A stretch of DNA of 64,000 nucleotides from Halobacteriovoraceae bacterium (GCA_963719505.1 CAVRCF010000005.1:160001-224000); one strand, 5' to 3'; shown: positions 1 to 16,831, numbered from the stretch's first letter. Numbers and translations are program-made. Notes: a model not told the origin generated them from the letters alone.

Positions 1-961
1 TTTTTTTACCAAACGAAGTTTTTTCGTGAGCTTTGGCTCTTTAGTTGGGCTCTTTATCGGAGGCTATGCTCTTAGTCACGTTGAATTAGTTGTCGGGCAG
101 TTTAATTCTTTCTCACTCCTTTTTCTTATGGGCTTTATTTTAAGAACATTGTCTTCTTTAACCTTGGCAACCCATAAGAGTGTCGACTTTGAAAAACAAG
201 CCTTAAAGTCCATCTCTAAAGCCTATTTTGCCTTTCCCAATCAATATGCTTATTTGAAAAAGATTGTGGCCTTTGTCGTCCTTTTTAAATTTGGTGTTTT
301 CTTCTCCGCGGGATTTTTCTCGCCTTATATGCTTAGTGTGCTCAATCTCACTTATATTGAATATATGAATATTCTTGGGGCGGCTTTTCTTGGACGAATG
401 ATCTTTAACCTCCTTGCAAAACGTATGCTCAAGAGGCTAGAGCTCACGAAGGTTCTTTTTTATTCGTGTTTCGGCATTTGTATTATCCCTATCTTATGGG
501 TTATTTTTAAAGACTATAATACACTTTTATTTTTAGAGGTTTTTACGGGGATTCTTTGGGGTGGCTTTGAGCTGGCCTTTGTTCTCATCTCCTTTAGAGA
601 AGCGCCTAGTAGTTTTCAGTCATTCTATGTTTCTTATTTTAGTTTTTTCCACGTGATCTTTGGGGCCTTGGGTGTTTTTCTTGGTATTATGGTTTTTAAG
701 ACTTTTGAAAGCTATGCCAATGTTTACTACCTTATCTTTATCCTCTCCGGTGGATTAAGACTTTTATCCCTTGTCTCCTTTCCTGGATTTAGAGAAATTA
801 GATTTAAAGACAATATTAAAATGTACTACCGAGTCTGGGCCATTAGACCAAATATGGGATGGATTCAGCGTCCCTCAATTTCGATTATAAATAAAAGTGG
901 AAAAAGAAATTTGAAGTTTAAAAAATCCAAGCACGATGAGATTGATATTCCAAAAATTTAG
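1..961 (+). CDS. MFS-type membrane transporter, 5' partial
   Basis: Frame is open to the window edge; about 8 hydrophobic segments with an MFS-like C-terminal half. Confidence 0.7.
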   Translation, partial: FFTKRSFFVSFGSLVGLFIGGYALSHVELVVGQFNSFSLLFLMGFILRTLSSLTLATHKSVDFEKQALKSISKAYFAFPNQYAYLKKIVAFVVLFKFGVFFSAGFFSPYMLSVLNLTYIEYMNILGAAFLGRMIFNLLAKRMLKRLELTKVLFYSCFGICIIPILWVIFKDYNTLLFLEVFTGILWGGFELAFVLISFREAPSSFQSFYVSYFSFFHVIFGALGVFLGIMVFKTFESYANVYYLIFILSGGLRLLSLVSFPGFREIRFKDNIKMYYRVWAIRPNMGWIQRPSISIINKSGKRNLKFKKSKHDEIDIPKI

Positions 962-1773
962 GACTGGCATTTTGGGCAGTGATAGGTCCCTCTTTGACCT
1001 AGAACGGTCTTAACGACTTGAGTCTTTTTACACTGCTGGCAAATCTTTTGGTAAAAGACAACCAGGTGATTGACTCCGCCTCCCACACTTCCTGTGGTGT
1101 CGGCGTAACCTCCAGCGAAAGTTGTGCCTCCCGTTTCAGTTGCACCATCAATAACCACAAAGACGGCCTCATAGAGCTTTTTTATCTCTTTTGGTTTTAA
1201 AGTCTTAACTTGTCGGTTGGGAAGAACAAAGGCCCTGGCACATATTTCATTGGCGATATAGTTTCCGGTTCCCGCAAAAAGTGATTGATCGAGGAGAGTG
1301 ACTTTTATAAATCTTTCCGGGTATTTTAAAATTTTCTCTTTGAAGTATTCAAAAGTAAAAGTGTTGCTTTTAAGGTCTTCACCAAGTTCGCTGAGTTTCC
1401 TATCAGCGTCCGCTTTTTCATACAGATACATATGACCAAAACGCCTTGGATCGACATAGGCGATAAACACCTTCTCATCGTTATGCATGCCCATAAACTG
1501 CAAGTGTGTGTGTTTTTCGACAACCTTGGTTTTTGATATTCTCCATCCACCGGTCATGCCAAGATGGGAGAGTATATGTCTACTATCTGAGAGAAGGAAA
1601 TTTAGCATCTTACCTTTTCTTTGAACCTCTAAAATGATTTTGCCTTTAAGTTTATCCATTTTGGTGTGGATGATGGAGTCTGAAACACCTGATAGGGCAA
1701 CACTTTTGATCGTGAAGGGTGTGATCAAGTTGAGTTGATTTTTAATTGTTTCGACTTCGGGTAACTCAGGCAT
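958..1773 (-). CDS. mutM: Formamidopyrimidine-DNA glycosylase (Fpg/MutM)
   Basis: N-terminal MPELPEVE, RKGK, HLGMTG, DPRRFG, LLDQS..AGTGNYIANE (H2TH) and a C-terminal C4 zinc finger. Confidence 0.97.
   Translation of the reverse strand: MPELPEVETIKNQLNLITPFTIKSVALSGVSDSIIHTKMDKLKGKIILEVQRKGKMLNFLLSDSRHILSHLGMTGGWRISKTKVVEKHTHLQFMGMHNDEKVFIAYVDPRRFGHMYLYEKADADRKLSELGEDLKSNTFTFEYFKEKILKYPERFIKVTLLDQSLFAGTGNYIANEICARAFVLPNRQVKTLKPKEIKKLYEAVFVVIDGATETGGTTFAGGYADTTGSVGGGVNHLVVFYQKICQQCKKTQVVKTVLGQRGTYHCPKCQS
1757..1763 (+). repeat. Left att core TCGGGTA
   Basis: Identical 7-mer at 16667-16673; 1757-1774 vs 16667-16684 is 15/18 identical. Confidence 0.85.
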
Positions 1774-1803
1774 ATCTTTCTAACCTTCTGAAAATACTGA
1801 TTG

Positions 1804-1812
1804 ATTATAGCA
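1804..1812 (-). promoter_or_regulatory. Island-supplied extended -10 promoter (TGcTATAAT) for mutM
   Basis: Reverse complement of attatagca is TGCTATAAT, about 30 nt upstream of the mutM ATG; GAAGG RBS lies between. Confidence 0.65.
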
Positions 1813-1823
1813 CTTTATCACTC

Positions 1824-1854
1824 TATGCCATCCCATGCCAGCCGTATGCCAGCA
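1824..1854 (+). repeat. Three tandem ATGCCA(G/T)C repeats, putative integrase arm-type sites
   Basis: ATGCCA at 1825, 1835 and 1846; inverted copy at 1911-1920; two more at 16530-16547. Confidence 0.7.
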
Positions 1855-1859
1855 AAAAG

Positions 1860-3116
1860 CTAAGAATCTGTGCCATTTTTGTAGTTTGATAGTGAAATAA
1901 CATTAGAAAAGCTGGCATGAGTTTCCTCTTCCTTTCTAGTTTTCTTTCTAATATGTTCCATTATCATTTGCGAGAAATGCTTTTGATCATCTTCATTACT
2001 TTTTGAATAGTGATCAGCAAGTTTTAAATCCTTATGGCCTGTCATCGCTATTACCGCGTCTAGGCCACCACCAATTTTACGAGCAAGCTTCGCCATCCCA
2101 TGTCTAAGAATATGAGTACCCGAATAGGGAACTCCACTTTTTCTTTGAGCTTCACGGTAGTTTAGCTGAATTGTGCCGTAGTTTAATGGATTGCCTTCTA
2201 CATGAAAAACAAAGTCACAGCCATGTACTCTAAATGCATCACGCTTAGTTAGAATTTCCATGATTTCATCAGTAATGAAAACAGGACGTGATTCTTTATT
2301 TTTTGGAAATGCTTTTAGCTCTAAAAAAGTCTTGTTACTCGGATGAAAAATACTCGTGTGTTTGATCATCATTCTTCTATTTTTCATATCAATATTGCTC
2401 CACTGAATTCCGCATATCTCTCCGATACGTCCAGCACAGTAAAACTGCATTTGTGCCAACTCTCTATAAAGAGGTGGTAGATAATCAAAAAATAAAAGAG
2501 CACTATCAAGATCAATTTGTTTTCTCTTATCCGGTACAGGTCTGATAAAACCAAGCTTTCGATGCTTGGTCTTAATTGGACATGTTAGTAACATGGCTTC
2601 TTTTTCAAATTCTTCACTTTGCTTGTACCAATTAAAAATTGTGACCAGAAGATTTAACTCATTATTGAGATTACATCTTCTAGCATTTCCTCTACCTGAT
2701 TCTAGATACTGTTCACTTTTAAAGTATTCTACAGTCTTGTTTACCCATGCCGTTATTTTTGAAGGAGTGATCCTGTCCATAGGTAAATGCTCAATACTCT
2801 TTAAAAGATGATAGCGTCTAAGCCAAATAGTTTTTGTACTGGTTGCAAGGGTCGGGAAGTGATGCTTTTGCATCACCTCCCACACTTCCCTTAATGTTGA
2901 AAAACTTGAATTTAATTCATTGTTTGAATTTGCTGTTGTTTTGGAATACGAGATTCCATCAAATGTTTTGCGCCACTGCTTTGCTTCAAATAAAGTCTCA
3001 AAAGTTTCTTGGAACTGCTTGCCATTGATTTTTTTCATAGCAAGATAGGTTCCAGACTTTTGATACTTATAGATTGCAGTTGCATTTTTTACTTTTACGT
3101 AACCTTTTTTACTCAT
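1860..3116 (-). CDS. int: Tyrosine recombinase / integrase
   Basis: GRIGE (R), HILRH (HxxR), TGH and ADHY (Y) catalytic motifs; AAGGAG RBS before the ATG at 3116. Confidence 0.95.
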   Translation of the reverse strand: MSKKGYVKVKNATAIYKYQKSGTYLAMKKINGKQFQETFETLFEAKQWRKTFDGISYSKTTANSNNELNSSFSTLREVWEVMQKHHFPTLATSTKTIWLRRYHLLKSIEHLPMDRITPSKITAWVNKTVEYFKSEQYLESGRGNARRCNLNNELNLLVTIFNWYKQSEEFEKEAMLLTCPIKTKHRKLGFIRPVPDKRKQIDLDSALLFFDYLPPLYRELAQMQFYCAGRIGEICGIQWSNIDMKNRRMMIKHTSIFHPSNKTFLELKAFPKNKESRPVFITDEIMEILTKRDAFRVHGCDFVFHVEGNPLNYGTIQLNYREAQRKSGVPYSGTHILRHGMAKLARKIGGGLDAVIAMTGHKDLKLADHYSKSNEDDQKHFSQMIMEHIRKKTRKEEETHASFSNVISLSNYKNGTDS

Positions 3117-3361
3117 AGTTCTCCTTTGAGCCAACTAATGACTTCACTAGGAATGAACCAGAGCCTTCCGCGCTTTTTTCTATATGGTATATCGCCTTCA
3201 GATACTAAGTTATAAATGGTTCCCTTAGAATACCTTGTAAAGCGAGCTACCTCATCAATACCCCATATTAATTTGTCAAAGAACACTTCCGTTGTACGGA
3301 TATCACTAGGGTTATGATCATAGCTTAAATTCCCAGAATTGTAATTATTTTTGTAAACCAT
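3113..3361 (-). CDS. Excisionase-like helix-turn-helix protein
   Basis: EVARFTRYSKGTIYNLVSEGDIPYRKKRGRLWF, an HTH_17-like pattern; overlaps the int start. Confidence 0.85.
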   Translation of the reverse strand: MVYKNNYNSGNLSYDHNPSDIRTTEVFFDKLIWGIDEVARFTRYSKGTIYNLVSEGDIPYRKKRGRLWFIPSEVISWLKGEL

Positions 3362-3551
3362 TCACTTCCTTTGATTTAGAGTGTTTAGTTGTTTTATTCT
3401 TAAAATGCTCCATGACTTCATCATAAGAAAAGCGGATATGTTTCCCCATTTTTATATAGGGAATTTCATCCTTACTTATCCAGTAGTAGATCGTATTAAC
3501 GGGAACATTAACAAGACTTGCTAACTCCTTTGGAGAAAGATTATTCTTCAA
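3345..3551 (-). CDS. Second excisionase-like HTH protein
   Basis: LSPKELASLVNVPVNTIYYWISKDEIPYIKMGKHIRF; likely TTG start at 3551 after GGAG. Confidence 0.85.
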   Translation of the reverse strand: MKNNLSPKELASLVNVPVNTIYYWISKDEIPYIKMGKHIRFSYDEVMEHFKNKTTKHSKSKEVNGLQK

Positions 3552-3900
3552 ATTTAATCTCCTTTCCCCATACGGGATTTGAGTAGCGCTTACCATCAAA
3601 ATCCATTTTTACAGGTAAAAGTCTGTCCTCGTAACAATCAGCCTCCCACTGATCCCATTGAAACCATTTGATCTGATTATGAGGAACGTTTCTCAAATTA
3701 TGCATTCTTACGTCTGATGCAAAATTTTCAAAGTTCATTTCTAGTCCAATCCCTTTATAGTTTTTATCTCTGGATTTAAATAAAATGATCTCGTACCCTG
3801 TATCCGTTTTTATTATTTTGTGACCGTACTTTCTTTTTTGCCCTGCTTTATTCCACGTAACTTCTTCTGTATGATATTTTAGATTTTCTTTTGTTGGCAT
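3541..3900 (-). CDS. Hypothetical island protein (119 aa)
   Basis: ORF with RBS, overlapping the downstream xis-like gene. Confidence 0.6.
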   Translation of the reverse strand: MPTKENLKYHTEEVTWNKAGQKRKYGHKIIKTDTGYEIILFKSRDKNYKGIGLEMNFENFASDVRMHNLRNVPHNQIKWFQWDQWEADCYEDRLLPVKMDFDGKRYSNPVWGKEIKFEE

Positions 3901-3926
3901 ATATTTTCCCTTGTCTAATCGGCCCG

Positions 3927-3976
3927 CTTTCTGACCTCCTTCTCCAAGTTTACGTAGCGAGAGGGAGGTCAGAAAG
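3927..3976. repeat. 18-bp inverted repeat (1 mismatch) with 14-nt loop
   Basis: CTTTCTGACCTCCTTCTC (3927-3944) pairs with GAGAGGGAGGTCAGAAAG (3959-3976). Confidence 0.85.
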
Positions 3977-4246
3977 TAAGGGTCGAAAAAGTTAATAATT
4001 TAAAAGATTTGCCAACTAAAGCATAAAGGTATTGGAACGCAGTGGATGCGTATTACCCTATGAGTAGATTGGCATTCTCTCTTTCTATATATTTAATAAT
4101 TGTTTTAAACTCGTCTCATATCCTCGGTGCAAGGCCTTAGAGTTTATTAAATTAAATGTCTGATTATTAAAGTCTTTTTCATAAATAAAGATGAACTTGT
4201 CTGTATTTATTTCTTTTCTAAGTTCTGGATTGGACCCCGTTTTAGG

Positions 4247-5050
4247 CTACCTTTGATTTTCTAATAAATACTCTTTCGGGCTCAACATGCCAAGCCCTGA
4301 ATGAGGTGCTATTTCATTATAATCTTTCATCCAACCCTTGATCATCTTCAGCACTACATCCGCACTGTAACAGTCGCTGTTGTAGACATAGTCTCGCTTG
4401 ATCGTTTTCACAAAAGCTTCACTCATTCCATTTGATTCTGGGCTATAGGCAGCTGTATAACAGCTTTTTAAACCAAGATGGTTCGCCAAATTCTTAACAG
4501 AATGGGCTCGATAAATACTTCCTCTATCCGATAAAAATTCTATCGTTCTCAAAGTTTTGTAATCTTTAAACCTGTATTTAACTGCTTTCAGCATCAGACT
4601 CTCAATATCAGTCGCAAGCAGTGGTGATTTTGAAGCTACAAATGAGAGAACCTCTCTGTCACATGTATCTAAAACAAAAGAAACAAAAACTTTTTCTCCG
4701 TTAAAGCACTTAATCTCAAAACAATCACTGCACCACCTTGTATTTGAATGCAGAGTCATTACTTTGCCAGTTGGAGTGTGAGTTCTCGTCACAGCAGACT
4801 TTGGAAGAAGAAGTCCATTCACTCTCATGATCCTGTAGATACGCTTCTTATTAAGCCTTGGATGCCCCAGAGTAAGTCGAAGACGATTGACCATGGCCGT
4901 AACTCGTTTATAACCATAAGTTGGTCGTAAGGAAACAATTGACCTAATCTGGCTTAGTATTTCTCCATCTTCAGCTTTAAAGTAAAATTTCTTTGAGCTA
5001 GTCGTTTTATAAATTGATTTTGAGTGGACTCCAAACATTTCACAGATCAT
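4247..5050 (-). CDS. IS3-family transposase OrfB (DDE)
   Basis: YGYKR, SNTRWCSD, LSDRGS, SPESNGMSEAF and YN..PHS.L motifs. Confidence 0.95.
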   Translation of the reverse strand: MICEMFGVHSKSIYKTTSSKKFYFKAEDGEILSQIRSIVSLRPTYGYKRVTAMVNRLRLTLGHPRLNKKRIYRIMRVNGLLLPKSAVTRTHTPTGKVMTLHSNTRWCSDCFEIKCFNGEKVFVSFVLDTCDREVLSFVASKSPLLATDIESLMLKAVKYRFKDYKTLRTIEFLSDRGSIYRAHSVKNLANHLGLKSCYTAAYSPESNGMSEAFVKTIKRDYVYNSDCYSADVVLKMIKGWMKDYNEIAPHSGLGMLSPKEYLLENQR

Positions 5051-5412
5051 TTTTTTTGATCCTTTCTTTTTGAGTTTGATGAATTCTTTTGCTCGATCAA
5101 CTCCTGTTCCAAGATCTTTTTTTTATAAAAATCGATGATATCCTGAGCGACCTCTTCTCTGAGGGTAGATTCACCAACTTTCTTGAGTAGTTTATCTTTG
5201 TCTTTTTTAAGTTGATCAATTTGTTTCAAAAGGTCAGCAACATCGATATTAGTATCAGGTTTGTCTTTCATAGCTCTTTTCCATTGGTATAAAGTTACTG
5301 CATTTATATCATGGACTCGTGCTAAAACTGAAATTGGAACACCTTTTGAACGATGTTCCTGTAGAATTTGGATTTTTTGATCTTCGGTAAATCTTCTTCT
5401 TTTTCTTTCCAT
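5047..5412 (-). CDS. IS3-family transposase OrfA (HTH)
   Basis: RRRFTEDQK...ARVHDINAVTLYQWK; A-rich overlap with orfB. Confidence 0.93.
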   Translation of the reverse strand: MERKRRRFTEDQKIQILQEHRSKGVPISVLARVHDINAVTLYQWKRAMKDKPDTNIDVADLLKQIDQLKKDKDKLLKKVGESTLREEVAQDIIDFYKKKILEQELIEQKNSSNSKRKDQKK

Positions 5413-5722
5413 TTTTTCCTCCGTTAAGAGGTAGCCGTCAAAAGGGGGTCACGAACAAAAAGTTCTTCACATAAAAATTTATTTTCTTCTCTGTCACGGC
5501 ACTTGAACATTATCCATCTTTGATTTCTGTTCATGGCCGCTTCAAGATCAGGGTGTAAGCTCATAATTTAACCTAATTTTGTTACCTTCAATGTACTAGT
5601 GCCAAGAAATCCAAAAACATCATCGAAAAACTTGGAAGAACTTAAATAAAATTAGATTATCTCATGAAAATTAGGTACTTATATATACGGGAAAGTTGTT
5701 CTTGCATTGAGTTAGGGGGAGT

Positions 5723-6196
5723 ATGTTAGATTTATACAGAAGGTTTAGAGTTAAAAAATTTTATGATGAATTTTATAAAACAAAGACTGAGTCTGGGAAA
5801 AAACTGGGAAAGTGCTTACCTACTTGGATTTATAAACATGACATAAAGTGTTGGACTAATAACATGCTAGCTGACTCTATTAAGTGCTATGTTCAAGATA
5901 ATATGACAGCTTTTAGGAATGACGGAATTGTTCCATATATACAGGGGGAGCAGAACCGTCGAGGGAACATTAGATTTTTAATTATTAACTCATTACTTTC
6001 ATTAATCGTTCTTTCTATTTCTCTTTTGGTATCTGTAAGATTATCGAATGATGATTCAAGTTTTGAAAAGGAATGGCTACAAGAGCAGAAAAGACAACAT
6101 GCTGAGAGTATAAAATATTTAGAAAATATAAGTGATAAGTTTTCGATTTCTGATAAAAAATTAATTAAAAGTAATATAAAGAAGAAAATAAAATAA
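5723..6196 (+). CDS. Hypothetical protein with one transmembrane segment
   Basis: 157-aa ORF with GGGGGAG RBS and hydrophobic stretch FLIINSLLSLIVLSISLLVSV. Confidence 0.6.
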   Translation: MLDLYRRFRVKKFYDEFYKTKTESGKKLGKCLPTWIYKHDIKCWTNNMLADSIKCYVQDNMTAFRNDGIVPYIQGEQNRRGNIRFLIINSLLSLIVLSISLLVSVRLSNDDSSFEKEWLQEQKRQHAESIKYLENISDKFSISDKKLIKSNIKKKIK

Positions 6197-6208
6197 TAAA
6201 TACTTAGG

Positions 6209-6637
6209 TTAAGCTTCCATCAAATGAATTTCAGAATACAGGGAGTTTTTTGCAGGTACTTTCTGAACTGGTTTTCTTAAAACTTCAATAGCTTTTTGGA
6301 AAATTTCAATTAGCATTGGCTTGTCGTATTCTTCATGAATAGCAGTAATAACATCAACCTTCCAACCATCTTTATCTTTAAAAGCTGGGAGAGTAAGTAG
6401 GCGATGAATGATAGGTGTATCTAGCGACTCATCGCTTTTTACACATTCTAATAAAAATAAAAGTGAATCTAGGCGCTTTCCAACTTTGTTATCTAAGATT
6501 TCTTTGAAAGGACGTTCAATATTTTGAGAAAGGGCCACACTAGATACACCAATATAGCGTGCGACAACCTTGTGAGATGAATCTCCGAGTAATAGTCTGA
6601 TACGATCTACCACTTCTCTTGTTAATACGTTTTTCAT
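6209..6637 (-). CDS. HTH protein, Xre/MbcA/ParS-antitoxin-like
   Basis: N-terminal HTH-like VARYIGVSSVALSQ followed by KRLDSLLFLLE...LLTLP; family resemblance by eye. Confidence 0.5.
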   Translation of the reverse strand: MKNVLTREVVDRIRLLLGDSSHKVVARYIGVSSVALSQNIERPFKEILDNKVGKRLDSLLFLLECVKSDESLDTPIIHRLLTLPAFKDKDGWKVDVITAIHEEYDKPMLIEIFQKAIEVLRKPVQKVPAKNSLYSEIHLMEA

Positions 6638-6685
6638 AATGAAGTCCTTATCTTTCTACACAGCCTTTCGGCTTATAAAATATAT

Positions 6686-6723
6686 AGCTTTAACAAAATA
6701 CCACCTTTTGTTAAAGCTGTCAA
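6686..6723 (-). promoter_or_regulatory. Sigma70 promoter overlapped by a perfect 13-bp palindromic operator
   Basis: Minus strand TTGACA-17-TATTTT; AGCTTTAACAAAA-N7-TTTTGTTAAAGCT at 6686-6718. Confidence 0.8.
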
Positions 6724-6786
6724 TGTTGTGTTGTAATTTCAGGTAGTTATTGATAATCTTTAATGGTCTAACTTATTGGAAATACG

Positions 6787-7482
6787 ATGGCTTATAATAT
6801 TATTTATTCAAGAACATTTTTGGAGAAGGTTTCTAACTGGCCTGAGAGTTTGAGAAAAATGGCATTCGAAGCAGCAGAGCACGCAGCATTAGATCCCAGT
6901 TTAAATGATTATAAAAGGCCTTATTTAACTCCCTATAGACAAAAGCATCCAACAACAGACCATCAATATACATTGTACTTTTTAGAACTTTCAACTACAG
7001 AAATATTTATTGCTTGGATCAATGATAGTACATGCTTGCATGACACAAGAAATAAGCAAACAGACCCGTGTTTAAAGGAGTTTGAAAAACTTCAGGCACA
7101 AGGCTCTATTGAAAACTTTGATCCAAAATACCACCAAATTGTTTTTGAGGTTCATCCAGACGTATCTAAGCCCATTAGATGTCGCTCGCAGTTTTTAGGC
7201 CATGAGACATATTTGAATACATACTTAGACTCCAGTATCCCTGCTTTTGTTGGCCATGCTTTTAATTGTGATGAACCGAATACCGATATCGCTAAAAGAC
7301 ATGTTAAAGAATTCTTAAGTGAGCTTCATTCTTCTCTTACGTCTTCATCGAAAGAGTTAGAGATTCATCTTGATAAAAAAAGTCACCTTCATGAAATTAT
7401 GCTTCTAACTGAAGGCCATAATCAAAATCAATGGGAGATTATAGCAGATCCAGATGATTTCATTTTAAAGAAGAAATCTTAA
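6787..7482 (+). CDS. RelE-superfamily (YhaV-like) toxin domain with C-terminal extension
   Basis: MAYNIIYSRTFLEKV start; LYF....EIFIAWIND..CLH.....TD resembles the YhaV WxND...TD motif. Confidence 0.5.
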   Translation: MAYNIIYSRTFLEKVSNWPESLRKMAFEAAEHAALDPSLNDYKRPYLTPYRQKHPTTDHQYTLYFLELSTTEIFIAWINDSTCLHDTRNKQTDPCLKEFEKLQAQGSIENFDPKYHQIVFEVHPDVSKPIRCRSQFLGHETYLNTYLDSSIPAFVGHAFNCDEPNTDIAKRHVKEFLSELHSSLTSSSKELEIHLDKKSHLHEIMLLTEGHNQNQWEIIADPDDFILKKKS

Positions 7483-7567
7483 ATATATACCTTTAACTGA
7501 TGAAATATATTTGTCAGGTGTTAAGATAAATTAATTTTTTGCTTTGGCCCCCAATTCAGTAGACACT

Positions 7568-8308
7568 TTAATTAGCACTCCGGTACTGGAGTGGACTCAT
7601 CATCTTTAATGCTGAATGTGGTGCTATTTCATTATAATCCGCAAACCACTCTGGCAACATTTTTAAAACTGTTTCAGCATCCTTACAGTCTGCGAGATAA
7701 GCATAATCTCTTTTGATAGTGTGAACGAAAGATTCTGCCATTCCATTTGAAGAAGGGCTATATGGAGCTGTATAACATGTCAGAAGCCCTAAGTCTCTGG
7801 CCGCATTACGTGTGATGTTTGCTCGATAAATTGTTCCTCTATCTGTTAGCCATTGAATTTTATGTGGCGTCTCAACATCCTTAAATCTATTTAAGACTGA
7901 CTCGCTCATCAAATCTCGAATATCTGTTGCTTGAAGTGGTCGATCTTTGGCCACAAAACTTATTGCTTCCCTGTCCTTACAATCTAAGCTGAAAGCAACG
8001 TAAACTTTTTCTCCGTTAAAGCACTGAAGCTCAAATCCATCAGAGCACCAACGAGTATTTGAATGAAGAGTCATTACCTTTCCAGTTCCAGGATGCTTTT
8101 TTCTTGATGGATATTTTTTAAACAATAAATCGTTCATATCCATAACCCTATATATTCTTTTGCGATTAACAATCGCTTTGTTATGAAGAACTCTTTCTCT
8201 ATTAAGCATCGCTGTAATCCTCTTATATCCGTACGTTGGGCGTTTCTCTTTTAACTCCTTTATGGATTCTAATATTTCAGCATCATCTTTTTTCCTATAT
8301 CTTTTCAT
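7568..8308 (-). CDS. IS3-family transposase OrfB
   Basis: SNTRWCSDGFE, LTDRG, SPSSNGMAESF; frame open up to ~8440, consistent with a -1 frameshift. Confidence 0.95.
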   Translation of the reverse strand: MKRYRKKDDAEILESIKELKEKRPTYGYKRITAMLNRERVLHNKAIVNRKRIYRVMDMNDLLFKKYPSRKKHPGTGKVMTLHSNTRWCSDGFELQCFNGEKVYVAFSLDCKDREAISFVAKDRPLQATDIRDLMSESVLNRFKDVETPHKIQWLTDRGTIYRANITRNAARDLGLLTCYTAPYSPSSNGMAESFVHTIKRDYAYLADCKDAETVLKMLPEWFADYNEIAPHSALKMMSPLQYRSAN

Positions 8309-8415
8309 TTCTAAGCCTTTTGATTTTTTATAAAAAGCTGCCCTTGATACTTTTAAATATCTACAGACGAGACTTACCTTGAATCGTTTTAACTTAACGA
8401 TTTCTTTGGCAGCTT

Positions 8416-8748
8416 CTACTTTTCTTTTTTGGGATTTTTTTTAAAGATCTCTACCGCTTCATTCAGAATTTCTTTTTCTAAAGAAAGGTCCCCGACAATC
8501 TTTTTGAGTCTTCGGATTTCTTCTTTTTGCTTTTCATTTTCTGAAATTAGCTCTGATTGAGAATGATTCATCTTTGGATTTTTGTCTGACATCTGTCTTT
8601 TCCATTGAGCTAGAGTTACTGGGTGTATGCCATGTTTTGTGGCAATACTGATCATTGAATTCTTTTGATCAAAGTACTCTGCTAAGATAGCACATTTTTG
8701 TTCTTTGCTAAAATGCTTACGTTTTTTCGGTGACTTAGTAGTCGTCAT
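8416..8748 (-). CDS. IS3-family transposase OrfA
   Basis: KRKHFSKEQK...KHGIHPVTLAQWK, leucine zipper, ends at EIFKK. Confidence 0.92.
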   Translation of the reverse strand: MTTTKSPKKRKHFSKEQKCAILAEYFDQKNSMISIATKHGIHPVTLAQWKRQMSDKNPKMNHSQSELISENEKQKEEIRRLKKIVGDLSLEKEILNEAVEIFKKNPKKEK

Positions 8749-8870
8749 AACTTCCCCTTATTGGTTGGAAAAGTGTCTACTTGAAAAGGGGGTTACAAAC
8801 ATTTTATTCACTCATAATCCATTCAGAATATCCGATAACTAACTATAAACATTAAGATTTGGGGTTTGTA

Positions 8871-10031
8871 ATGACGAAAGGAAGATCGTCTCGTTTTAAC
8901 GAGAATTGGGAGAGTGTCCGTGATGAAAAAGGTAATTTAACAGATTTTGGCGAGTTTTTAAAAAGTAAGTTAATTAGTTTTTTGGAGCATGATTATTTAA
9001 ATATTTTATGTGGGCTCGGTACTTCTCTTGACTGTACTTCTGAAGGTAAAAAAGTTGCTCCTACTATGGGAGATCTATGGAGCGGTATAAAGACACAGAA
9101 AGAAGAGCTTCTTTTAAAGGTAATTGAGCTAACACCTTATGACTCTTCTGATGATAACATCGAAGAACTATTGTCATGTTGTAAATTGGCAATGGGATTT
9201 TATAAAGAAGGCTCCAAAGAATATAAAGCAGTAGAAGAGTTTGTCACATTCGCAGAAAACCTAATCGTAGACAGATGTAATTTCTGTGAAGATGATAAAC
9301 TCGACTTGAGCAGTCACCAAAGCTTTTTATTGAAGTTTGCAAGGAGAGGGAATAAATCAAGAAGAGCGAACCTATTTACAACTAATTATGATTTAGTTTT
9401 TGAAGTCGCAGCATCAAACACGGGGTATATTTTAAATGATGGTTTTTCATTCTCATATCCACGAAAGTTTTTATCAACAAATTTCAATATAGACTTTGTT
9501 CAAAGTCGTATAGCCAACAAAGAACCTAATTACTTAGAAAAGGTTATAAATTATTATAAGTTGCATGGATCAATTGATTGGGAGAGAGCTGGTGACTCAG
9601 GAGTTACTAAGAAAAACGGTAAGGCAGATTCTCCATTGATGATTTTCCCAAGAGCTTCAAAATATGAAATGTCATATCAATCTCCATATTTGGAAATGAT
9701 TACAGCTTTTCAGACACAACTATTGAATAACAATAGTTGCTTGATCATCTGCGGTTTTGGTTTTAATGATAATCATATTTCAAGTCACATTCTGAATGCA
9801 TTAAGAACAAATCCTACGATGAGTATTATTATCGTTGACCCTTCAATAGAGGAAAAAGCAAAGGGTAATAAAGAAATATCTGAAATCTCAAAAATGATTG
9901 ATGCAGGTGATGGTCGTATTGTCCTTCTAACATTAACGTTCAAGGAATTTGTAGAAGTGTTTCCTGACCTTGTATCTGAGTCTGAGTGGGAAATTCATAT
10001 GAATAGAGTTAGCAAGACTAAAGGAGAGTAA
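8871..10031 (+). CDS. SIR2-family NADase (SIR2-HerA defence system)
   Basis: GLGTS, FTTNYD, KLHGS and GFGFND motifs; directly upstream of HerA. Confidence 0.9.
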   Translation: MTKGRSSRFNENWESVRDEKGNLTDFGEFLKSKLISFLEHDYLNILCGLGTSLDCTSEGKKVAPTMGDLWSGIKTQKEELLLKVIELTPYDSSDDNIEELLSCCKLAMGFYKEGSKEYKAVEEFVTFAENLIVDRCNFCEDDKLDLSSHQSFLLKFARRGNKSRRANLFTTNYDLVFEVAASNTGYILNDGFSFSYPRKFLSTNFNIDFVQSRIANKEPNYLEKVINYYKLHGSIDWERAGDSGVTKKNGKADSPLMIFPRASKYEMSYQSPYLEMITAFQTQLLNNNSCLIICGFGFNDNHISSHILNALRTNPTMSIIIVDPSIEEKAKGNKEISEISKMIDAGDGRIVLLTLTFKEFVEVFPDLVSESEWEIHMNRVSKTKGE

Positions 10032-10032
10032 T

Positions 10033-11682
10033 ATGAATTATTTTTCTCCTGAAAGAATTATAGGCAGTGTAAATTCCGTTAATGCAAGTTCATGTGTAGT
10101 AAACTTACCTGAGGCCGCTAACAAAAATGGCAGAAGTTTATATGGAAACAACTTAAAGGCAGGGGTTGTAGGAGAGTTTGTTGTTATAGAAATGCACCAG
10201 TATGCTTTACTAGGAAAGATTATAACAACAAAGGTGCCAGAGTCTGAACGTTTATCAGTGAATGTAGATCTCGGGCAAAGTGTAAGTGCAAATCCATTAG
10301 GTATTGTTCAGCTTTTAGCAAGCTTTGACTCAATAAATGACAGATTCACCCCTGGCTTGAAAGAGTATCCCAGGATTGGAGCTAAAGTATATGCAGCACA
10401 CCCTGATTTGATTCAGAAACTTTCAAGTGTTGATATATCCAAGAAGGTATTTAAATTAGGTGAGATACCGGAAGCAAACTATATAGATATGAATGTAGAT
10501 GTGACGAATCTTGTAGGTAGGCATTGTGTTATTTTAGGGACCACTGGTGGGGGAAAAAGTTGGACTACTGCTACTATTGTAGAAGGTCTTGCAAAAAACA
10601 AAGTAAAGACTATTCTCCTTGATCCGACTGGAGAGTACCATACAATAAGTTCAAGTGTTAAGAATGTTTACTTGGGTGACTATGATTCAGCTCCAGATTC
10701 TCAGCAATGCTTCTTCCCATATACATCTTTAGAAGAAAGAGATTTATTTGCAATTTTTCAACCTAGTTCTGCGAGTCAGATACCAAAGTTAAAAGAGGCA
10801 ATCGCAAGTTTAAAACTAGCTAAAATTGATCCTACAATTGCAACATCAGGCATGGTTTTAAAGGCAGGAAAAGATAAGACAAATTTTGAAGCTTCTATGA
10901 TAACAAACGGTAAGGCAATTGTTAGTGGTACATCTGACTTTGATATAAGCCTGTTGTCTAAGCAAATAGTAGAAGAGTGTGTCTGGCCTCAAGACTTCAA
11001 GAAGCCGACATTCTGGGGTGGGCGAAATGACCAAATGTATGGTTACAATATAAGTCTTATTTCTCGAATAGATTCATGTTTGAATAGTAATAGTTTAGAT
11101 TGTTTATTTGATACCTCACAGGGGAATAGCTTTATTGATGAAGTTGATAAGTTTCTAAAGGGAGAAGACTCAATTTTAAGGGTTTCTGCAGAGTCTATCT
11201 CCTTTGAAAATAATGCAAGGGAGATCACAGCAAATGCAATAGGAAGGTACCTCTTGAAGTTAGCAAGACAAAATTGTTTTAAGAAAAATCCCGTTGTTGT
11301 TATTGTTGATGAGGCACATCAGTTTATGGACAAAAGCGTTGGAGATGAAATAAGCAAGGTTAAACTTGACTCTTTTTCCTTAATTGCTAAAGAAGGGAGA
11401 AAATACGGATTGAATATAATTTTAACAACACAAAGGTCTAGGGATATTTCTGAGGGAGTTTTAAGCCAGATTGGAACATTTATTGTACACAGATTGATTA
11501 ATGAGTCTGATATTAGAGTTGTAGAAAAAGCATCAGGAGAGGTTGATGGAAAAGTAATTAATTTCTTACCGACACTATCTCAAGGTGAAGCTATCGTTCT
11601 AGGAGTCGACTTTAATATTCCATTGACTGTTAAAATACATAAACCAACAAATCCGCCAAAATCTGAAGGACCAAAATACTAA
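10033..11682 (+). CDS. herA: HerA/FtsK-family ATPase
   Basis: HAS-barrel-like N-terminus, Walker A GTTGGGKS, DPTGEY, Walker B VDEAH, EGRKYG, TQR. Confidence 0.92.
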   Translation: MNYFSPERIIGSVNSVNASSCVVNLPEAANKNGRSLYGNNLKAGVVGEFVVIEMHQYALLGKIITTKVPESERLSVNVDLGQSVSANPLGIVQLLASFDSINDRFTPGLKEYPRIGAKVYAAHPDLIQKLSSVDISKKVFKLGEIPEANYIDMNVDVTNLVGRHCVILGTTGGGKSWTTATIVEGLAKNKVKTILLDPTGEYHTISSSVKNVYLGDYDSAPDSQQCFFPYTSLEERDLFAIFQPSSASQIPKLKEAIASLKLAKIDPTIATSGMVLKAGKDKTNFEASMITNGKAIVSGTSDFDISLLSKQIVEECVWPQDFKKPTFWGGRNDQMYGYNISLISRIDSCLNSNSLDCLFDTSQGNSFIDEVDKFLKGEDSILRVSAESISFENNAREITANAIGRYLLKLARQNCFKKNPVVVIVDEAHQFMDKSVGDEISKVKLDSFSLIAKEGRKYGLNIILTTQRSRDISEGVLSQIGTFIVHRLINESDIRVVEKASGEVDGKVINFLPTLSQGEAIVLGVDFNIPLTVKIHKPTNPPKSEGPKY

Positions 11683-11683
11683 A

Positions 11684-13618
11684 ATGTTTACTATGCCATA
11701 CAGTCTTATTCATTATGCACACGAAAAAGGTCTTAAAAGAGGCAAGAAGTCTGTATTTGGTAATATCAATGGACAAATAATTACGCTTACTCCAAGCGCA
11801 GATGCTACTATTCTTATTACAATTCACTTGCATGATCCATCTAGTATAACAACTGAAAGGTTGCGGTCCTTCGACTCATTCAAAAAATCTTCTGCTCAGC
11901 CTCATGACGTTGTAGAAGATGTATGTCGCTTTGGAATTACTCATAAGTCATTCGAGAAAAAACAAATTAAAGTACTACAGGATGGCATAGACGATATTAT
12001 CAAAGTCGTTGAGTCTTTTAATAAGCCAACATATCAAAAGGATTTAATTCTCATAGGTGGAGTTGCAAGACCAAATTCTGAAGAAGAAATAGAAAAGTAT
12101 AAGGCTAAGAATACTGAAAAGTTTAATAGGAAGGTCGATTATATGTCCGCTGGGATAGTAACTTTGTTATCCTCCATTATAGGTGGCTATTTGTTTGGCT
12201 ATGGTATGGCCATGATTTTTTCTAAGCTTAAAGCTGGCCTACATATGATCTCAAGAGCCTTTTTCTACTATATGATTCCTGGTGGGATTTATCTCAAAAG
12301 AGCAAAGAAAATAGATCGGAATGGTAGGATAATTGTAACACTATGTGCTCTAGTCATGCTCGTCGTGGCCGAGTTTATGCTTATCTATTATGGAACTAAC
12401 TCTAAAGGATATGGATACTCTTTTAATGAAGCCATGGACTTGTTTATAAATCTTCTTTCAAATAAGGGGCAGTATCAAAGAGAGTTCATTATAGGGCTTG
12501 TTATTGTTCTAGGGTTGAATTTCTTACCAGCACGACTCCAATTTAATAAAGACATTAGGATTGAGGAAGGTATTGATGTAGATGATGAATACTATAATAG
12601 AGCAACAGAGCTAAAAAGTGCGAATAAGTGGAGGACAGGTATCCTAGTTTCTTCGATATTTATCGGAATGTTTGGGTTTGTTCGTCATGTAACCTTGGGA
12701 GCTGACTTTGATTACGTATACCCGATACATCAATGGGGTTGGTTTTTTGGATCTTGGCTTCTTTCATTTATATTTGTTGCCTTGCTTGTTCAGCTAGTTC
12801 CTATGTTGAGAAAGAGTGTTGGCTCAAATGATTATAAACCAATAAAGAAATCTATTAAGACCCTTGAGATATTAGTTTATTCAGCATCTATAGCTACTTG
12901 GATCTTGTCAGGGGTGAATTACGTTAATCTAGAGTTTCCTTCTAAAGAAATAACTCAAGAAGGCTTGGTTACTAAGCTTGATTATAATTACAAGACCAAG
13001 GAATACTTCCTAGAATTTAAATCCGATAAGTATCCTAATGTGTTTATGAATGCGCATACTAAAAAACAACCATATTTGATAGATAATACAAAGGCACGAG
13101 CCACGATTAAAGAGGGATACTTAGGGTCACCATTAATAACAGAAATGAGCTATTTCGAGGTGAATACCTTTGAATCAGCAAGTAAACACTTCAAAAGTGA
13201 AAATGAGCTTAGAAGCTCAAACATTGAAGCATTTGTTAAATTTGATAAGAGTGATGCTTTTTTAGTTCAAATTGATAAATGGGCAACTCAATGTAAAGAA
13301 AAGAAAGATTACAGCTGTAGACTTTCTAGTTATGTATATGCTCACAAGAAAGATACCTTGAATCAAGCTCGCTTTGTAAAAATGGGTTGCTTAGAAGCAG
13401 ATGATCCTATTTCTTGTTATGGATATTTCTTTGGAGGTAAGTTTGATGATACTTCAAAGAAGACGGCACTTGAAAGACTTGAAAAGGGCTGTGATTTATA
13501 TAAAGCTGATCACTGTCTTTACTGGGCATATTCTTTAAGAAAAGTTGATCATCCTAAATACCACAGAAAAATAAAAGAATTAATCAAGAAAGGTGCGGAG
13601 TTGAAGAGACTCAAGTAG
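11684..13618 (+). CDS. Multi-pass membrane protein with Cys-rich Sel1-like C-terminus
   Basis: About 7 hydrophobic segments; C-terminal GC..(D/A)..SC / KGC.L....HC repeats. Confidence 0.6.
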   Translation: MFTMPYSLIHYAHEKGLKRGKKSVFGNINGQIITLTPSADATILITIHLHDPSSITTERLRSFDSFKKSSAQPHDVVEDVCRFGITHKSFEKKQIKVLQDGIDDIIKVVESFNKPTYQKDLILIGGVARPNSEEEIEKYKAKNTEKFNRKVDYMSAGIVTLLSSIIGGYLFGYGMAMIFSKLKAGLHMISRAFFYYMIPGGIYLKRAKKIDRNGRIIVTLCALVMLVVAEFMLIYYGTNSKGYGYSFNEAMDLFINLLSNKGQYQREFIIGLVIVLGLNFLPARLQFNKDIRIEEGIDVDDEYYNRATELKSANKWRTGILVSSIFIGMFGFVRHVTLGADFDYVYPIHQWGWFFGSWLLSFIFVALLVQLVPMLRKSVGSNDYKPIKKSIKTLEILVYSASIATWILSGVNYVNLEFPSKEITQEGLVTKLDYNYKTKEYFLEFKSDKYPNVFMNAHTKKQPYLIDNTKARATIKEGYLGSPLITEMSYFEVNTFESASKHFKSENELRSSNIEAFVKFDKSDAFLVQIDKWATQCKEKKDYSCRLSSYVYAHKKDTLNQARFVKMGCLEADDPISCYGYFFGGKFDDTSKKTALERLEKGCDLYKADHCLYWAYSLRKVDHPKYHRKIKELIKKGAELKRLK

Positions 13619-13994
13619 ATCATCCTTATGAAAATTGTAAAGTCTTTGTATATAATTACATTTGTTTTGACTATTGTTTCTGGTTTTTATGCAAATCATA
13701 TCTTTGAAAGAAGTATAGAGATTAATGATGTCGAAATATCTAATATTAAAAATATATTAAATTCACATGGGTTAAAGGCTGAGAATCTAGATGATTACAA
13801 AATTTATGTAGCAGATATTGGTATTTTGCAGGTAAGTTTGTTTGATAATATAATTCTAGTAAATAGTAGATATTTAAAAAACCTTCATGAAAATGAAAGT
13901 CATATAGCATTCTTTTTTGCACATGAAACAAGTCACAATCCTATATATTTGTTCGTGACCCCCTTTTGACGGCTACCTCTTAACGGAGGAAAAA

Positions 13995-14360
13995 ATGGAA
14001 AGAAAAAGAAGAAGATTTACCGAAGATCAAAAAATCCAAATTCTACAGGAACATCGTTCAAAAGGTGTTCCAATTTCAGTTTTAGCACGAGTCCATGATA
14101 TAAATGCAGTAACTTTATACCAATGGAAAAGAGCTATGAAAGACAAACCTGATACTAATATCGATGTTGCTGACCTTTTGAAACAAATTGATCAACTTAA
14201 AAAAGACAAAGATAAACTACTCAAGAAAGTTGGTGAATCTACCCTCAGAGAAGAGGTCGCTCAGGATATCATCGATTTTTATAAAAAAAAGATCTTGGAA
14301 CAGGAGTTGATCGAGCAAAAGAATTCATCAAACTCAAAAAGAAAGGATCAAAAAAAATGA
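13995..14360 (+). CDS. IS3-family OrfA
   Basis: Identical protein to 5047-5412. Confidence 0.93.
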   Translation: MERKRRRFTEDQKIQILQEHRSKGVPISVLARVHDINAVTLYQWKRAMKDKPDTNIDVADLLKQIDQLKKDKDKLLKKVGESTLREEVAQDIIDFYKKKILEQELIEQKNSSNSKRKDQKK

Positions 14361-15159
14361 TCTGTGAAATGTTTGGAGTCCACTCAAAATCAATTTATAA
14401 AACGACTAGCTCAAAGAAATTTTACTTTAAAGCTGAAGATGGAGAAATACTAAGCCAGATTAGGTCAATTGTTTCCTTACGACCAACTTATGGTTATAAA
14501 CGAGTTACGGCCATGGTCAATCGTCTTCGACTTACTCTGGGGCATCCAAGGCTTAATAAGAAGCGTATCTACAGGATCATGAGAGTGAATGGACTTCTTC
14601 TTCCAAAGTCTGCTGTGACGAGAACTCACACTCCAACTGGCAAAGTAATGACTCTGCATTCAAATACAAGGTGGTGCAGTGATTGTTTTGAGATTAAGTG
14701 CTTTAACGGAGAAAAAGTTTTTGTTTCTTTTGTTTTAGATACATGTGACAGAGAGGTTCTCTCATTTGTAGCTTCAAAATCACCACTGCTTGCGACTGAT
14801 ATTGAGAGTCTGATGCTGAAAGCAGTTAAATACAGGTTTAAAGATTACAAAACTTTGAGAACGATAGAATTTTTATCGGATAGAGGAAGTATTTATCGAG
14901 CCCATTCTGTTAAGAATTTGGCGAACCGTATTGGTTAAAAAGCTGTTATACAGCTGCCTATAGCCCAGAATCAAATGGAATGAGTGAAGCTTTTGTGAAA
15001 ACGATCAAGCGAGACTATGTCTACAACAGCGACTGTTACAGTGCGGATGTAGTGCTGAAGATGATCAAGGGTTGGATGAAAGATTATAATGAAATAGCAC
15101 CTCATTCAGGGCTTGGCATGTTGAGCCCGAAAGAGTATTTATTAGAAAATCAAAGGTAG
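14357..15159 (+). pseudogene. IS3-family OrfB with frameshift near 14930
   Basis: AACCGTATTGGTTAAAA here vs AACCATCTTGGTTTAAAA in copy A; mutation or sequencing error. Confidence 0.75.
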
Positions 15160-15552
15160 CCTAAAACGGGGTCCAATCCATATTTTATAATCTCTTTATG
15201 TTCTTTATGCCTTGGTGCTTACCTAGTTTTTAAAAAGGAAAAGGTAAAGCAATCTTTAATTAGGTATATTTTAGGATTATCGATAGCTTGCTATATGGAG
15301 AGTAATGCAGATATTGAAGGTTGTAAGCTAATAAATAATCAACAAGCCGCCTTGTCGGGCCTAGACCATCTTGATCAAGAAGTTAGTAGTATAAGAAGTA
15401 TTTTAGGCTTATTTAAGCTCAATGCACATCCTCCTATTTTAGTAAGAAAGCTAGTATTAAAATCTTATTGTCGTGATGCGTCATTCTTGAAAACTGATAA
15501 ATAAGTTATATTTTAGGTTCTATGAGTGAATTCTATCTGGCATAATATATTT

Positions 15553-16476
15553 ATGGATAAATTAATTAAAAACAGAAACATTATATTGCTTCTTGTAGCG
15601 CTAGTTCTAATGACATCATGTGCACTCAATAATGGTTATAAAAATTCACCTGGTAAAACAGATGAAGAGAAAAAGTATAACTTTATAATGAGTCTATATG
15701 AGCAAGAGCGATTCATTCTTTCATATGAAAACATAAAAATGTTTATAACTGAGTATCCAGAATCAGATAAGTTACAAAAACTTAGATGGATGAAGGTTAG
15801 GATTGCAAACGATCAGCAGGACTATAAAAAACTACAAAGAGTAAGTCGAGATTACTTAGAAAAATATCCTGATACAGACAAAAAAGATGAACTTGTTAAA
15901 ATGAAAGATCAGGCAGATGAGAGATTCAATACATTTGATACTCATATGGAATTCAATTATTACTTTGGTTGGGCTATGGGGCAAAGTGGAAATTTTGATG
16001 ATAACCATAAAGACCGCGTTACAAATATGGGACTGCACTATTATTTCAAGGAAAACTATGCATTTGGAGTTGATAGGACTGTAATACTTTATGATGGAGA
16101 TGATTCTCAGTTTAATTCAGTAGATACTTCTGAAAAGAATGATCAAGTCAGTATCACTCTCGCTACGCCAACGTTTACCTATCGCAATTTGTTTCACGAT
16201 AAGTTTACATTTATGTACCGTGTAGGTTACTCATGGGTTCAAAATGGTCTTGGTGATCGGTTCGAGAGTTCAGATGAGGTAAACGATTCAGGGCATGCCA
16301 TTTCTCAAAAGTTCCTGTTTAATTACTGTTATGACAAAGAAGGAAAGGTTAAATGTTGGAACGGAGACAATGTTTCATTTGGATTCTTTACCTTTAATTT
16401 TATTGATGGTGCGGTAGGAAAAACAGAATTAAAAGATAGTATGCTATGGGGGTTCTTACTAGGAATATCAACATAG
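15553..16476 (+). CDS. Lipoprotein with BamD/TPR-like N-domain and beta-barrel-like C-domain
   Basis: Lipobox LMTSC; FITEYPES and YLEKYPDT TPR motifs; C-terminal amphipathic strands. Confidence 0.6.
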   Translation: MDKLIKNRNIILLLVALVLMTSCALNNGYKNSPGKTDEEKKYNFIMSLYEQERFILSYENIKMFITEYPESDKLQKLRWMKVRIANDQQDYKKLQRVSRDYLEKYPDTDKKDELVKMKDQADERFNTFDTHMEFNYYFGWAMGQSGNFDDNHKDRVTNMGLHYYFKENYAFGVDRTVILYDGDDSQFNSVDTSEKNDQVSITLATPTFTYRNLFHDKFTFMYRVGYSWVQNGLGDRFESSDEVNDSGHAISQKFLFNYCYDKEGKVKCWNGDNVSFGFFTFNFIDGAVGKTELKDSMLWGFLLGIST

Positions 16477-16529
16477 TTTACAGGTCCCATTTTTTATTAG
16501 TCCTTGTCTAAAATTCATTTCGTTATTTT

Positions 16530-16547
16530 ATGCCAGCCATGCCAGCC
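16530..16547 (+). repeat. Tandem ATGCCAGCC x2, putative arm-type sites at the right end
   Basis: Matches the repeats at 1835-1853. Confidence 0.7.
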
Positions 16548-16620
16548 GAATTCTGAAACATAGTTAAATCGAATGAAGTATTATGAAATCGAAAAAAGCG
16601 CAAAAGGCCTGTATCCATCG

Positions 16621-16683
16621 CTAGTATGTTGAAATTAAAAAACTTTTCAAATTGTAGAACGACGCCTCGGGTAGTTCTGGCAT
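16621..16683 (-). pseudogene. mutM: Displaced native mutM 5' stub / right att site
   Basis: Reads MPELPE-ASFYNLKSFLISTY* with a GAAGAGAG RBS-like sequence; contains the TCGGGTA core. Confidence 0.85.
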
Positions 16684-16831
16684 AAATTATCTCTCTTCGG
16701 CATTACTACTTAAATTTAGACTGACTCTTCTATCATGACACCATATTAATTTTAGTTAAATTTACAGCCAAAAAATGGTGTAGTAAAGGTCGAAGGTTTC
16801 TGTCATAATAATTTAAGGGGCTTGTATCAAA

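Follow-up and report, generated by a model that had tools for sequence, protein, structure and literature searches.

The start of mutM as a probable integration site for a family of mobile elements in Bdellovibrionota

Why should the first codons of a DNA-repair gene stand twice in the same genomic neighbourhood? The question is raised by a stretch of 64,000 nucleotides from a Halobacteriovoraceae bacterium (GCA_963719505.1, CAVRCF010000005.1:160001-224000; this whole stretch is called the window below), in which two copies of the beginning of mutM enclose an island of 14.9 kb. We propose that positions 1774-16666 of the window are very probably a site-specific integrative element, a reduced member, invaded by insertion sequences (IS), of a Bdellovibrionota family that targets the first 17 nt of mutM.

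Both copies lie on the minus strand and in direct orientation. The first, ATGCCTGAGTTACCCGA at 1757-1773, opens a 271-residue Fpg/MutM open reading frame (ORF) and marks the junction between mutM and the adjoining island sequence, the P arm. The second, ATGCCAGAACTACCCGA at 16667-16683, continues as MPELPEASFYNLKSFLISTY into a TAG stop, that is, into the island's other end, the P' arm, and thus forms a stub of 20 codons plus stop (16621-16683). Upstream of the stub, positions 16684-16831 (minus strand) are presumably the original upstream region of mutM, or B arm; in an arm comparison they are unlike the island-type arm. The two 17-nt copies encode the same peptide, MPELPE, and their three differences (CCT/CCA, GAG/GAA and TTA/CTA) are all synonymous; the longest unbroken identity between them is TACCCGA (TCGGGTA on the plus strand). 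The original prediction of a duplicate mutM start, left as a stub at the far end of an island, is borne out at both sites.

Since PELPE is a conserved motif, a second copy could in principle be a chance match, or a local duplication without any link to an integrase. Window counts speak against this: the degenerate pattern ATGCCNGARYTNCCNGA, written for Met-Pro-Glu-Leu-Pro-Glu/Asp, has two matches where 100 shuffles give an expectation of 0.00, and a family consensus core with at most 3 mismatches finds these two sites alone, with 0.03 expected. Elsewhere in the genome the MPELPE pattern occurs once more, by chance, inside another gene. This occurrence was tried as an attachment site (G000:C5:764183-764199, L037) and rejected, as it falls within an aminotransferase-like ORF (...RMGMPELPEEIF...) without integrase context.

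The gene next to mutM points to the agent of duplication. Upstream of mutM by 89 bp, on the same strand, lies a gene for a tyrosine integrase (1860-3134, minus strand), a 424-residue ORF when read from TTG; homologues suggest that the true start may be the ATG at 3116, which would give 418 residues. The protein is full length, matches PF00589 at 4.5e-16, above the cut-off, as well as phrog_1, and aligns with the 3nkh integrase across the catalytic domain. Its residues R229, K261, H334, R337, H360 and Y369 are invariant in a 14-sequence alignment (A1), so that it has the features of a tyrosine recombinase; Pfam recognised no N-terminal arm-binding domain in it. Two genes for excisionase-like helix-turn-helix (HTH) proteins of the HTH_17 type follow on the minus strand. 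The first (3113-3361; PF12728, TIGR01764) is conserved beside the integrase in relatives, with tblastn matches adjoining the integrase in 12 of them, and the second (3345-3599) matches PF12728 and also TIGR01764, at 49.8 bits and above the cut-off.

How regularly such integrases neighbour mutM was surveyed across the phylum by cross-matching the coordinate tables of both genes from 401 genomes, with counts made by hand. With 46% identity and 350 aligned residues as lower limits there are 47 integrase homologues; 38 of them share the strand of mutM and lie 76-248 bp upstream of it. Six others, in tandem arrays, lie 2-62 kb upstream of mutM on the same contig and strand. As for the remaining three, one is 126 bp from a contig edge, one (G253:C12) is on a contig other than that of mutM and one is not judgeable. 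Among the mutM matches listed, none is adjoined by an integrase match at 24-41% identity.

A second sample, which overlaps the first, consists of loci fetched by integrase alignment with one genome per species, the best 80 of 142 relatives being kept; by title these are mostly metagenome-assembled genomes of Bdellovibrionota type, with a few odd or generic labels. A mutM start follows the integrase by 75-251 bp at 55 of these best 80 loci. At 16 the core motif alone follows, 83-259 bp after the integrase, and these are internal units of arrays; five loci have no contig room, and four are arranged otherwise, namely L109 and L134, with gaps of 481 and 2109 respectively, and L126 and L130. The records of L084 and L117 (G152, placed in the window's own family) are titled Flavobacteriaceae and Sulfitobacter, which are probably mislabels or binning errors.

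Relatives also repeat the stub. Among 23 relatives' mutM loci taken with 1.5-kb flanks, an integrase homologue or its remnant stands directly upstream in 8, and the stubs of the same core found upstream of mutM in relatives are all in sense orientation, none antisense, and often form arrays. There are two units of about 5 kb in G001, one unit each in G018 (12.8 kb), G251 (30.4 kb) and G256 (4.3 kb), at least four stubs in G021, and three integrases in G382, where two units measure 29.4 and 32.8 kb and the third runs off the contig. A gene-restoring layout, with the integrase beside the 5' end of its target and a direct repeat at the far end, is therefore found in the window and repeated in relatives. 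Because dozens of genomes have this arrangement, always with the integrase at the mutM-proximal end, the survey of adjacency and stubs refutes chance or unrelated duplication as the source of the second copy.

The gene that borders the island appears to be a working one. Its product (958-1773, minus strand; 271 residues) combines an H2TH domain with PELPEV at the N-terminus and a CxxC...CxxC zinc finger at the C-terminus, and matches PF01149 and PF06831 above their cut-offs, as expected of Fpg; the score for the NCBIfam equivalog TIGR00577, 187.7 bits, is slightly under the cut-off of 203.3. A search of the source genome gives one match, so that mutM is single-copy there, and the ORF stays intact, with PELPEV and zinc finger present, when headed by island-supplied sequence. 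The same is seen in relatives: the island-linked mutM ORFs begin with PELPE in 55 of 55 cases (the search pattern itself required PELPE), and 48 of the 55 are 265-277 residues long within a range of 191-320, two of them reaching a contig end. The original prediction had read the locus as an island integrated in the first codons of mutM by an adjoining tyrosine integrase, with a working gene headed by sequence that the island supplies and that still encodes PELPE; all of these parts stand, and a finding that would have spoken against them, integrase homologues that never adjoin mutM, is the reverse of what both samples give.

What the island would bring to mutM can be read in its arms. The P arm, an 86-nt spacer between the integrase stop and the mutM start (1774-1859, minus strand), has AAGGTTAG 8 nt ahead of the mutM ATG, with an AGGTTA motif resembling a ribosome site. 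Further upstream, at 1831-1804 on the minus strand, is a sigma-70-like promoter with ATGGCA, a 16-nt spacer and TATAAT preceded by TG, which matches the consensus hexamers at 10 of 12 positions and may well drive mutM. AGGTTA-type arms recur upstream of island-supplied starts in relatives, where they have in common an AAT-rich stretch and the AGGTTA-type motif about 8 nt before the start, and those ahead of the outermost stubs show no relation to one another. At a minimum, then, the working gene takes its promoter region, ribosome site and start codon from the island.

Both arms also contain short repeats. Two direct copies of CTGGCAT lie at 1835-1852 (minus strand), with a third GGCAT at about 1824-1828, and two more direct copies lie at 16530-16545 (minus strand) in the P' arm; four of the five minus-strand matches in the 64 kb thus form two pairs near the two island ends, which makes them candidate arm-type integrase sites. 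A AAAGTTTTTTAAT-type stretch in the window's P' arm recurs in the P' arm of a G382 island that has a 77% identical integrase, and this likeness fits 1774-16666 being one unit.

Taken together, these observations suggest how the locus may have arisen. The attachment site of the family would be the start codon and PELPE codons of mutM, and attP would carry its own copy of the 17 nt, with the AGGTTA motif and the promoter-like site on its integrase side. An integrase-mediated exchange inside the shared core would split mutM. The original promoter, start and core would be left behind at the island's far end, as a dead stub of 20 codons fused to the P' arm, and the body of mutM would be rejoined to the promoter, ribosome site and start codon of the island. 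Fpg requires proline at its very N-terminus, and rejoining mutM to an island-borne start would keep the N-terminal Pro-Glu that the enzyme needs.

Elements of this kind are known at other genes, and the present one resembles them to varying degrees. In dusA-specific islands and prophages, one clade of tyrosine integrases is devoted to the 5' end of one conserved housekeeping gene, and the elements replace that end and leave the original at the far side, with putative -10 and -35 sites present after insertion (Farrugia et al. 2015, PMC4482086). As described there, the dusA islands share with the mutM element the replaced 5' end, the original end at the far side and a putative promoter, and they differ in target gene and host phylum; in the mutM element, unlike in the dusA islands so described, the replaced part holds the catalytic residues at the N-terminus and the exchange extends to the start codon. 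The likeness to these dusA-associated integrase (DAI) islands lies in how the element would work rather than in any demonstrated membership of their clade. The SXT/R391 conjugative elements, reportedly described by Hochhut and Waldor in 1999, are said to use a tyrosine integrase to enter the 5' end of prfC and to supply a new promoter and 5' coding end. Gene, integrase and hosts are other than here, and the window's copy is without the transfer genes of its larger relatives.

A further parallel is offered by the SpyCI islands, which sit in the 5' end of mutL in Streptococcus pyogenes. Integrated SpyCI is described as blocking mutL transcription, which excision restores, giving a switchable mutator state (PMC4689407, PMC3430984, PMC4129442). 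On that description both are mobile islands in the 5' end of a DNA-repair gene; unlike SpyCI, the island studied here provides mutM with a new start and a promoter-like site, and the gene would be expected to stay on. Lambda-type heterobivalent tyrosine integrases form another point of comparison. These systems have arm-type sites, an integrase gene beside attP and an excisionase gene beside the integrase. The mutM element is alike in its integrase beside attP, excisionase-type HTH genes, duplicated core and short direct repeats in both arms, and differs in that its arm sites are predicted ones and that Pfam finds no arm-binding domain at the N-terminus.

That the element is of a known kind, the dusA, prfC or mutL type, is well supported; for its target, mutM, our searches turned up no precedent. 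In the literature searched, which did not extend to supplements or to the TIGER/Islander database, where mutM may be listed, neither mutM nor fpg is named as an attachment site by any paper found. One paper reports, for Halobacteriovorax marinus, a variable region that contains dnd genes and integrase pseudogenes, and in its accessible part makes no mention of mutM; two papers on Bdellovibrio-like genomes, in the parts available, mention integrases and not mutM. Large island databases, in which 43.4% of islands lie in coding sequences (PMC12424338), may already contain the mutM site.

Where inside the core would the strands be exchanged? The 7-bp TACCCGA in codons 4-6, which the original prediction took for the crossover, is favoured by the window sequence taken alone; several comparisons across loci point further 5', as junctions that share the island-side arm and have different right arms differ mostly at core position 6, and the window differs from L058 in this way at positions 6, 9 and 10. 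In 106 distinct junctions the identity between copies always ends right after CCNGA, and the start codon always goes with the left, island arm; this last regularity, together with the differences at position 6, suggests that the exchange may lie just after the start codon. We place the crossover no more narrowly than from the start codon to the final A of the core, and for this reason either copy may be the recoded, island-borne one.

If the strands were exchanged at the core's 5' edge, immediately behind the start codon, the earlier assignment would be reversed: CCTGAGTTACCCGA at 1757-1770 would be the host's own and the CCAGAACTACCCGA of the stub would come from attP. We consider this a serious possibility whose chances fall somewhat short of even. 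The integrase of L058 is 91% identical to that of the window and the 45 nt upstream of the ATG are identical at all 45 positions, after which the cores part, with CCCGAACTA in L058 and CCTGAGTTA in the window; a contig about 97% alike, X2, has the L058 form (CCCGAAC). In 14 junction pairs that agree in the left arm and not in the right, position 6 differs in 6 pairs, and positions 9, 10, 12 and 15 in one pair each. Two more such differences are at position 1, where L110 has ATG and L108 and L111 have TTG within near-identical arms. In six pairs with the same right arm and different left arms, three of the seven differences are in the start codon. The canonical core occurs in 12 of 19 stubs against 17 of 57 mutM-proximal cores (counted by hand), and all three same-genus genomes have CCT at Pro2 despite differing islands.

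These pairs are few and not independent, however, and amount to about four independent comparisons. The identity between the window's own arms at the 5' edge is 5-6 nt, (T)ATGCC, against 7 nt for TACCCGA, and arms with ATT, TTG or GTG would mismatch ATG inside an overlap placed there. Moreover, the rare CCTGAGTTA form recurs with the G382 integrase, which is 77% identical (L062), as fits linkage to the island, and drift or conversion between tandem cores could yield the same pattern as a displaced crossover. Under either placement, the wider reading of an element inserted in the first 17 nt of mutM is the one followed below.

Are these elements mobile? Integrase identity and the identity of the adjacent mutM are nearly uncoupled (Spearman 0.17; 49 loci, 1176 pairs). 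At L105 and L106 the integrases are 98% identical and the adjacent mutM genes 56% identical. Between the window and G396, G382, G262, G247 and G147, the integrases share 76-78% identity and the mutM genes only 43-54%; for the same-genus G001 the values are 61-65% for the integrases and 72% for mutM. Such sequence comparisons show transfer of the elements between hosts. Positions 1755-4225 and 5457-7472 of the window have counterparts in metagenome contigs from four runs, belonging to three studies, with a likeness of about 95-99%, being about 97% over the first stretch and about 95-97% over the second; these related islands are without the IS copy at 4226-5457 (copy A), and their likeness ends 2-3 nt outside the core, at 1754/1755. 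That it stops at the core places the island boundary there independently of the repeat evidence. Listed metagenome joints with a side of 21-22 nt are unreliable and were excluded.

Larger relatives go further than the window's island. In G382, G251 and G147, genes for conjugation adjoin the integrase and the excisionase-like genes, and comprise Replic_Relax (relaxase-like), a coupling protein of FtsK or TraG/TrwB type, TrbI, CagX and a VirB4-like ATPase. These genes mark the family as one of integrative conjugative elements, of which the window holds a reduced member: Pfam and PHROGs scans of its island found no phage structural, relaxase, coupling or type IV secretion genes, and it does not qualify as an integrative conjugative element. 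The window's copy is, to judge by its gene content, not a self-transmissible member. The cargo of the larger relatives includes SMODS with SLATT_4, a RES-domain protein and resolvases. In the mutM-linked element of G382, an SMODS nucleotidyltransferase and a two-helix SLATT_4 membrane effector are adjacent (L048:7416-8918), forming a pair like that of a cyclic-oligonucleotide-based anti-phage signalling system (CBASS). The RES-domain protein is in the G018 element (L029:8143-9210).

Relatives without an integrase next to mutM fall into two groups. In G006, G009, G014, G008, G010 and G040, mutM starts with ATG and has neither an island-type arm nor an integrase within 1.5 kb; the flanks are not alignable to those of the window. 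In G007, G020, G024, G005, G017, G022, G012, G016 and G013 there is no adjacent integrase, yet there is an island-type arm, extra stubs or a non-ATG start, which indicates that island-derived mutM starts have become fixed in several lineages.

This second group bears on an alternative history, in which the island integrated as proposed and is by now a fossil, incapable of excision or transfer and kept in place because mutM has come to depend on its promoter and start. Three IS copies inside the island, two of them identical, inverted and bracketing cargo, would agree with this, as would the lack of transfer genes, the scars at mutM in the nine genomes just named and the truncated integrases that adjoin mutM in G002, G003, G021 and G032. 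Against decay, the integrase gene encodes a complete protein in which no catalytic residue is missing, both cores and both excisionase-like genes are intact, and islands about 97% alike occur in the metagenomes of three studies with another core variant. We hold the fossil history to be possible though doubtful, and the window's copy may still be able to excise.

Several observations weigh against a site-specific, mobile element at this locus and should be set beside those in its favour. An integration hypothesis predicts an empty site with the same flanks, and none was found: nucleotide and protein flank searches of 26 relatives' loci matched mutM alone. The acetyltransferase-like gene of the right flank had no match in G001, G002, G003, G393 or G253, three of these five genomes being of the same genus, so that the empty site foreseen by the original prediction failed to appear; synteny around mutM seems too poor for it to be findable. 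Metagenome contigs of related islands include no circle joint and no contig that bridges 1757 to 16683, and in the metagenome run search the best share of sampled words was 0.19, so that no run contains the source genome. Without relaxase and type IV secretion genes, and with three IS copies, the island may be unable to move alone. In the phylum survey, the absence of mutM from the contig of some integrases was judged among the mutM matches listed and is not certain. Finally, part of the association between integrase and mutM is old and fixed rather than active, as many genomes without an adjacent integrase keep island-type arms or non-ATG starts at mutM. To the right of the stub, 16832-18469 encodes a 169-residue membrane protein and the 312-residue acetyltransferase-like protein; neither gene has a counterpart adjoining mutM in the relatives' loci and upstream stretches searched.

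The swapped start codon raises a further question, namely whether integration alters the expression of mutM. The window's mutM starts with ATG. Among 57 island-linked mutM starts, 37 are ATG, 9 ATT, 5 GTG, 4 TTG and 2 ATC, so that 20 are not ATG. The five outermost stubs with unrelated, native-looking arms (G000, G018, G021, G251 and G256) all have ATG, and so do six naive-looking mutM sites. Genes starting with ATT or ATC are not decayed, 11 of 11 being full length and 10 of 11 keeping the zinc finger. In G147 the upstream frame has a stop five codons ahead of the ATT, with no other start codon between, and since Fpg needs its proline at the very N-terminus, a start further upstream would not help. 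Apparent ATT or ATC starts of mutM occur in several species (G012, L008; G016, L010; G147, L039; L060-L066, L121 and L134), and such ORFs would be missed or mis-started by gene callers limited to ATG, GTG and TTG.

Near-cognate start codons initiate poorly, and weak start codons supplied by the island arm could thus let integration lower 8-oxoguanine repair. That the elements set the level of MutM, rather than merely preserving the gene, is an idea we put forward tentatively and consider unlikely on present evidence. If it were true, integration would raise G:C to T:A mutation, reversibly on excision, and conjugative elements would be spreading among predatory bacteria an equivalent, at mutM, of the SpyCI-mutL switch. 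In any case, an element that takes over the promoter and start of a gene for the repair of oxidative damage would make it possible to test whether mobile elements bear on the mutation rate of bacterial predators.

Other consequences would follow from the insertion site itself. mutM would join the short list of protein genes whose 5' end is a dedicated attachment site, and its start is a hotspot in the phylum, at which conjugative elements and their reduced derivatives stack in tandem and carry defence cargo (SIR2-HerA in the window, SMODS with SLATT elsewhere). The integrase clade would have a compact, highly conserved target of 17 nt, present wherever Fpg is, which could serve for site-specific insertion in Bdellovibrio-like bacteria that are hard to engineer.

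The remainder of the island consists of IS copies, a defence system and ORFs of no recognised family, without GC contrast to the flanks. Next to the second excisionase-like gene is orf119 (3541-3900, minus strand), followed by IS3-family copy A (4226-5457, minus strand), with orfA at 5047-5412 and orfB at 4247-5050, matches to Pfam HTH_Tnp_1 and rve, and an identical inverted counterpart. Three ORFs of 157, 142 and 231 residues (5723-7482) belong to a backbone common to related islands elsewhere, as judged by metagenome contig cover. A second, different IS3-family element, recognised by Pfam, occupies 7568-8748 (minus strand; orfB 7568-8308, orfA 8416-8748). IS3-family copy B (13949-15181, plus strand) is inverted relative to copy A, and its orfB is cut to 193 residues by a length difference of 1 nt, giving a frameshifted transposase. 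A lipoprotein-like ORF, orf316 (15526-16476, plus strand), has weak family matches only. Searches of Pfam, PHROGs, NCBIfam and PADLOC gave no family match for orf119, orf157, orf142, orf231, orf644 or orf113.

Copies A and B are identical over 994 nt and flank 5458-13948, which contains the defence genes; target-site duplications are not cleanly readable for either copy, and a composite transposon is not claimed. The anti-phage pair, at 8859-11682 on the plus strand, consists of SIR2 (8859-10031) and HerA (10033-11682), with Pfam matches to SIR2_2, DUF87 and HerA_C and strong PADLOC matches (PDLC04075 at 3e-87 for SIR2, PDLC04103 at 9e-179 for HerA). The genes abut at 10031/10033 and have the features of the SIR2-HerA system of PADLOC, likewise an adjacent gene pair; as cargo it has no bearing on the mechanism of integration. 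The original label of a defence island was right as to this cargo and needs refining as to the element, since larger relatives are conjugative and the window's copy is reduced and ridden with IS. Directly downstream of HerA, 11684-13969 (plus strand) holds orf644 and orf113. The former, a 644-residue ORF at 11684-13618, starts 2 nt past HerA on the same strand, has long hydrophobic stretches that mark it as a membrane protein by sequence, and could be a third gene of the SIR2-HerA unit.

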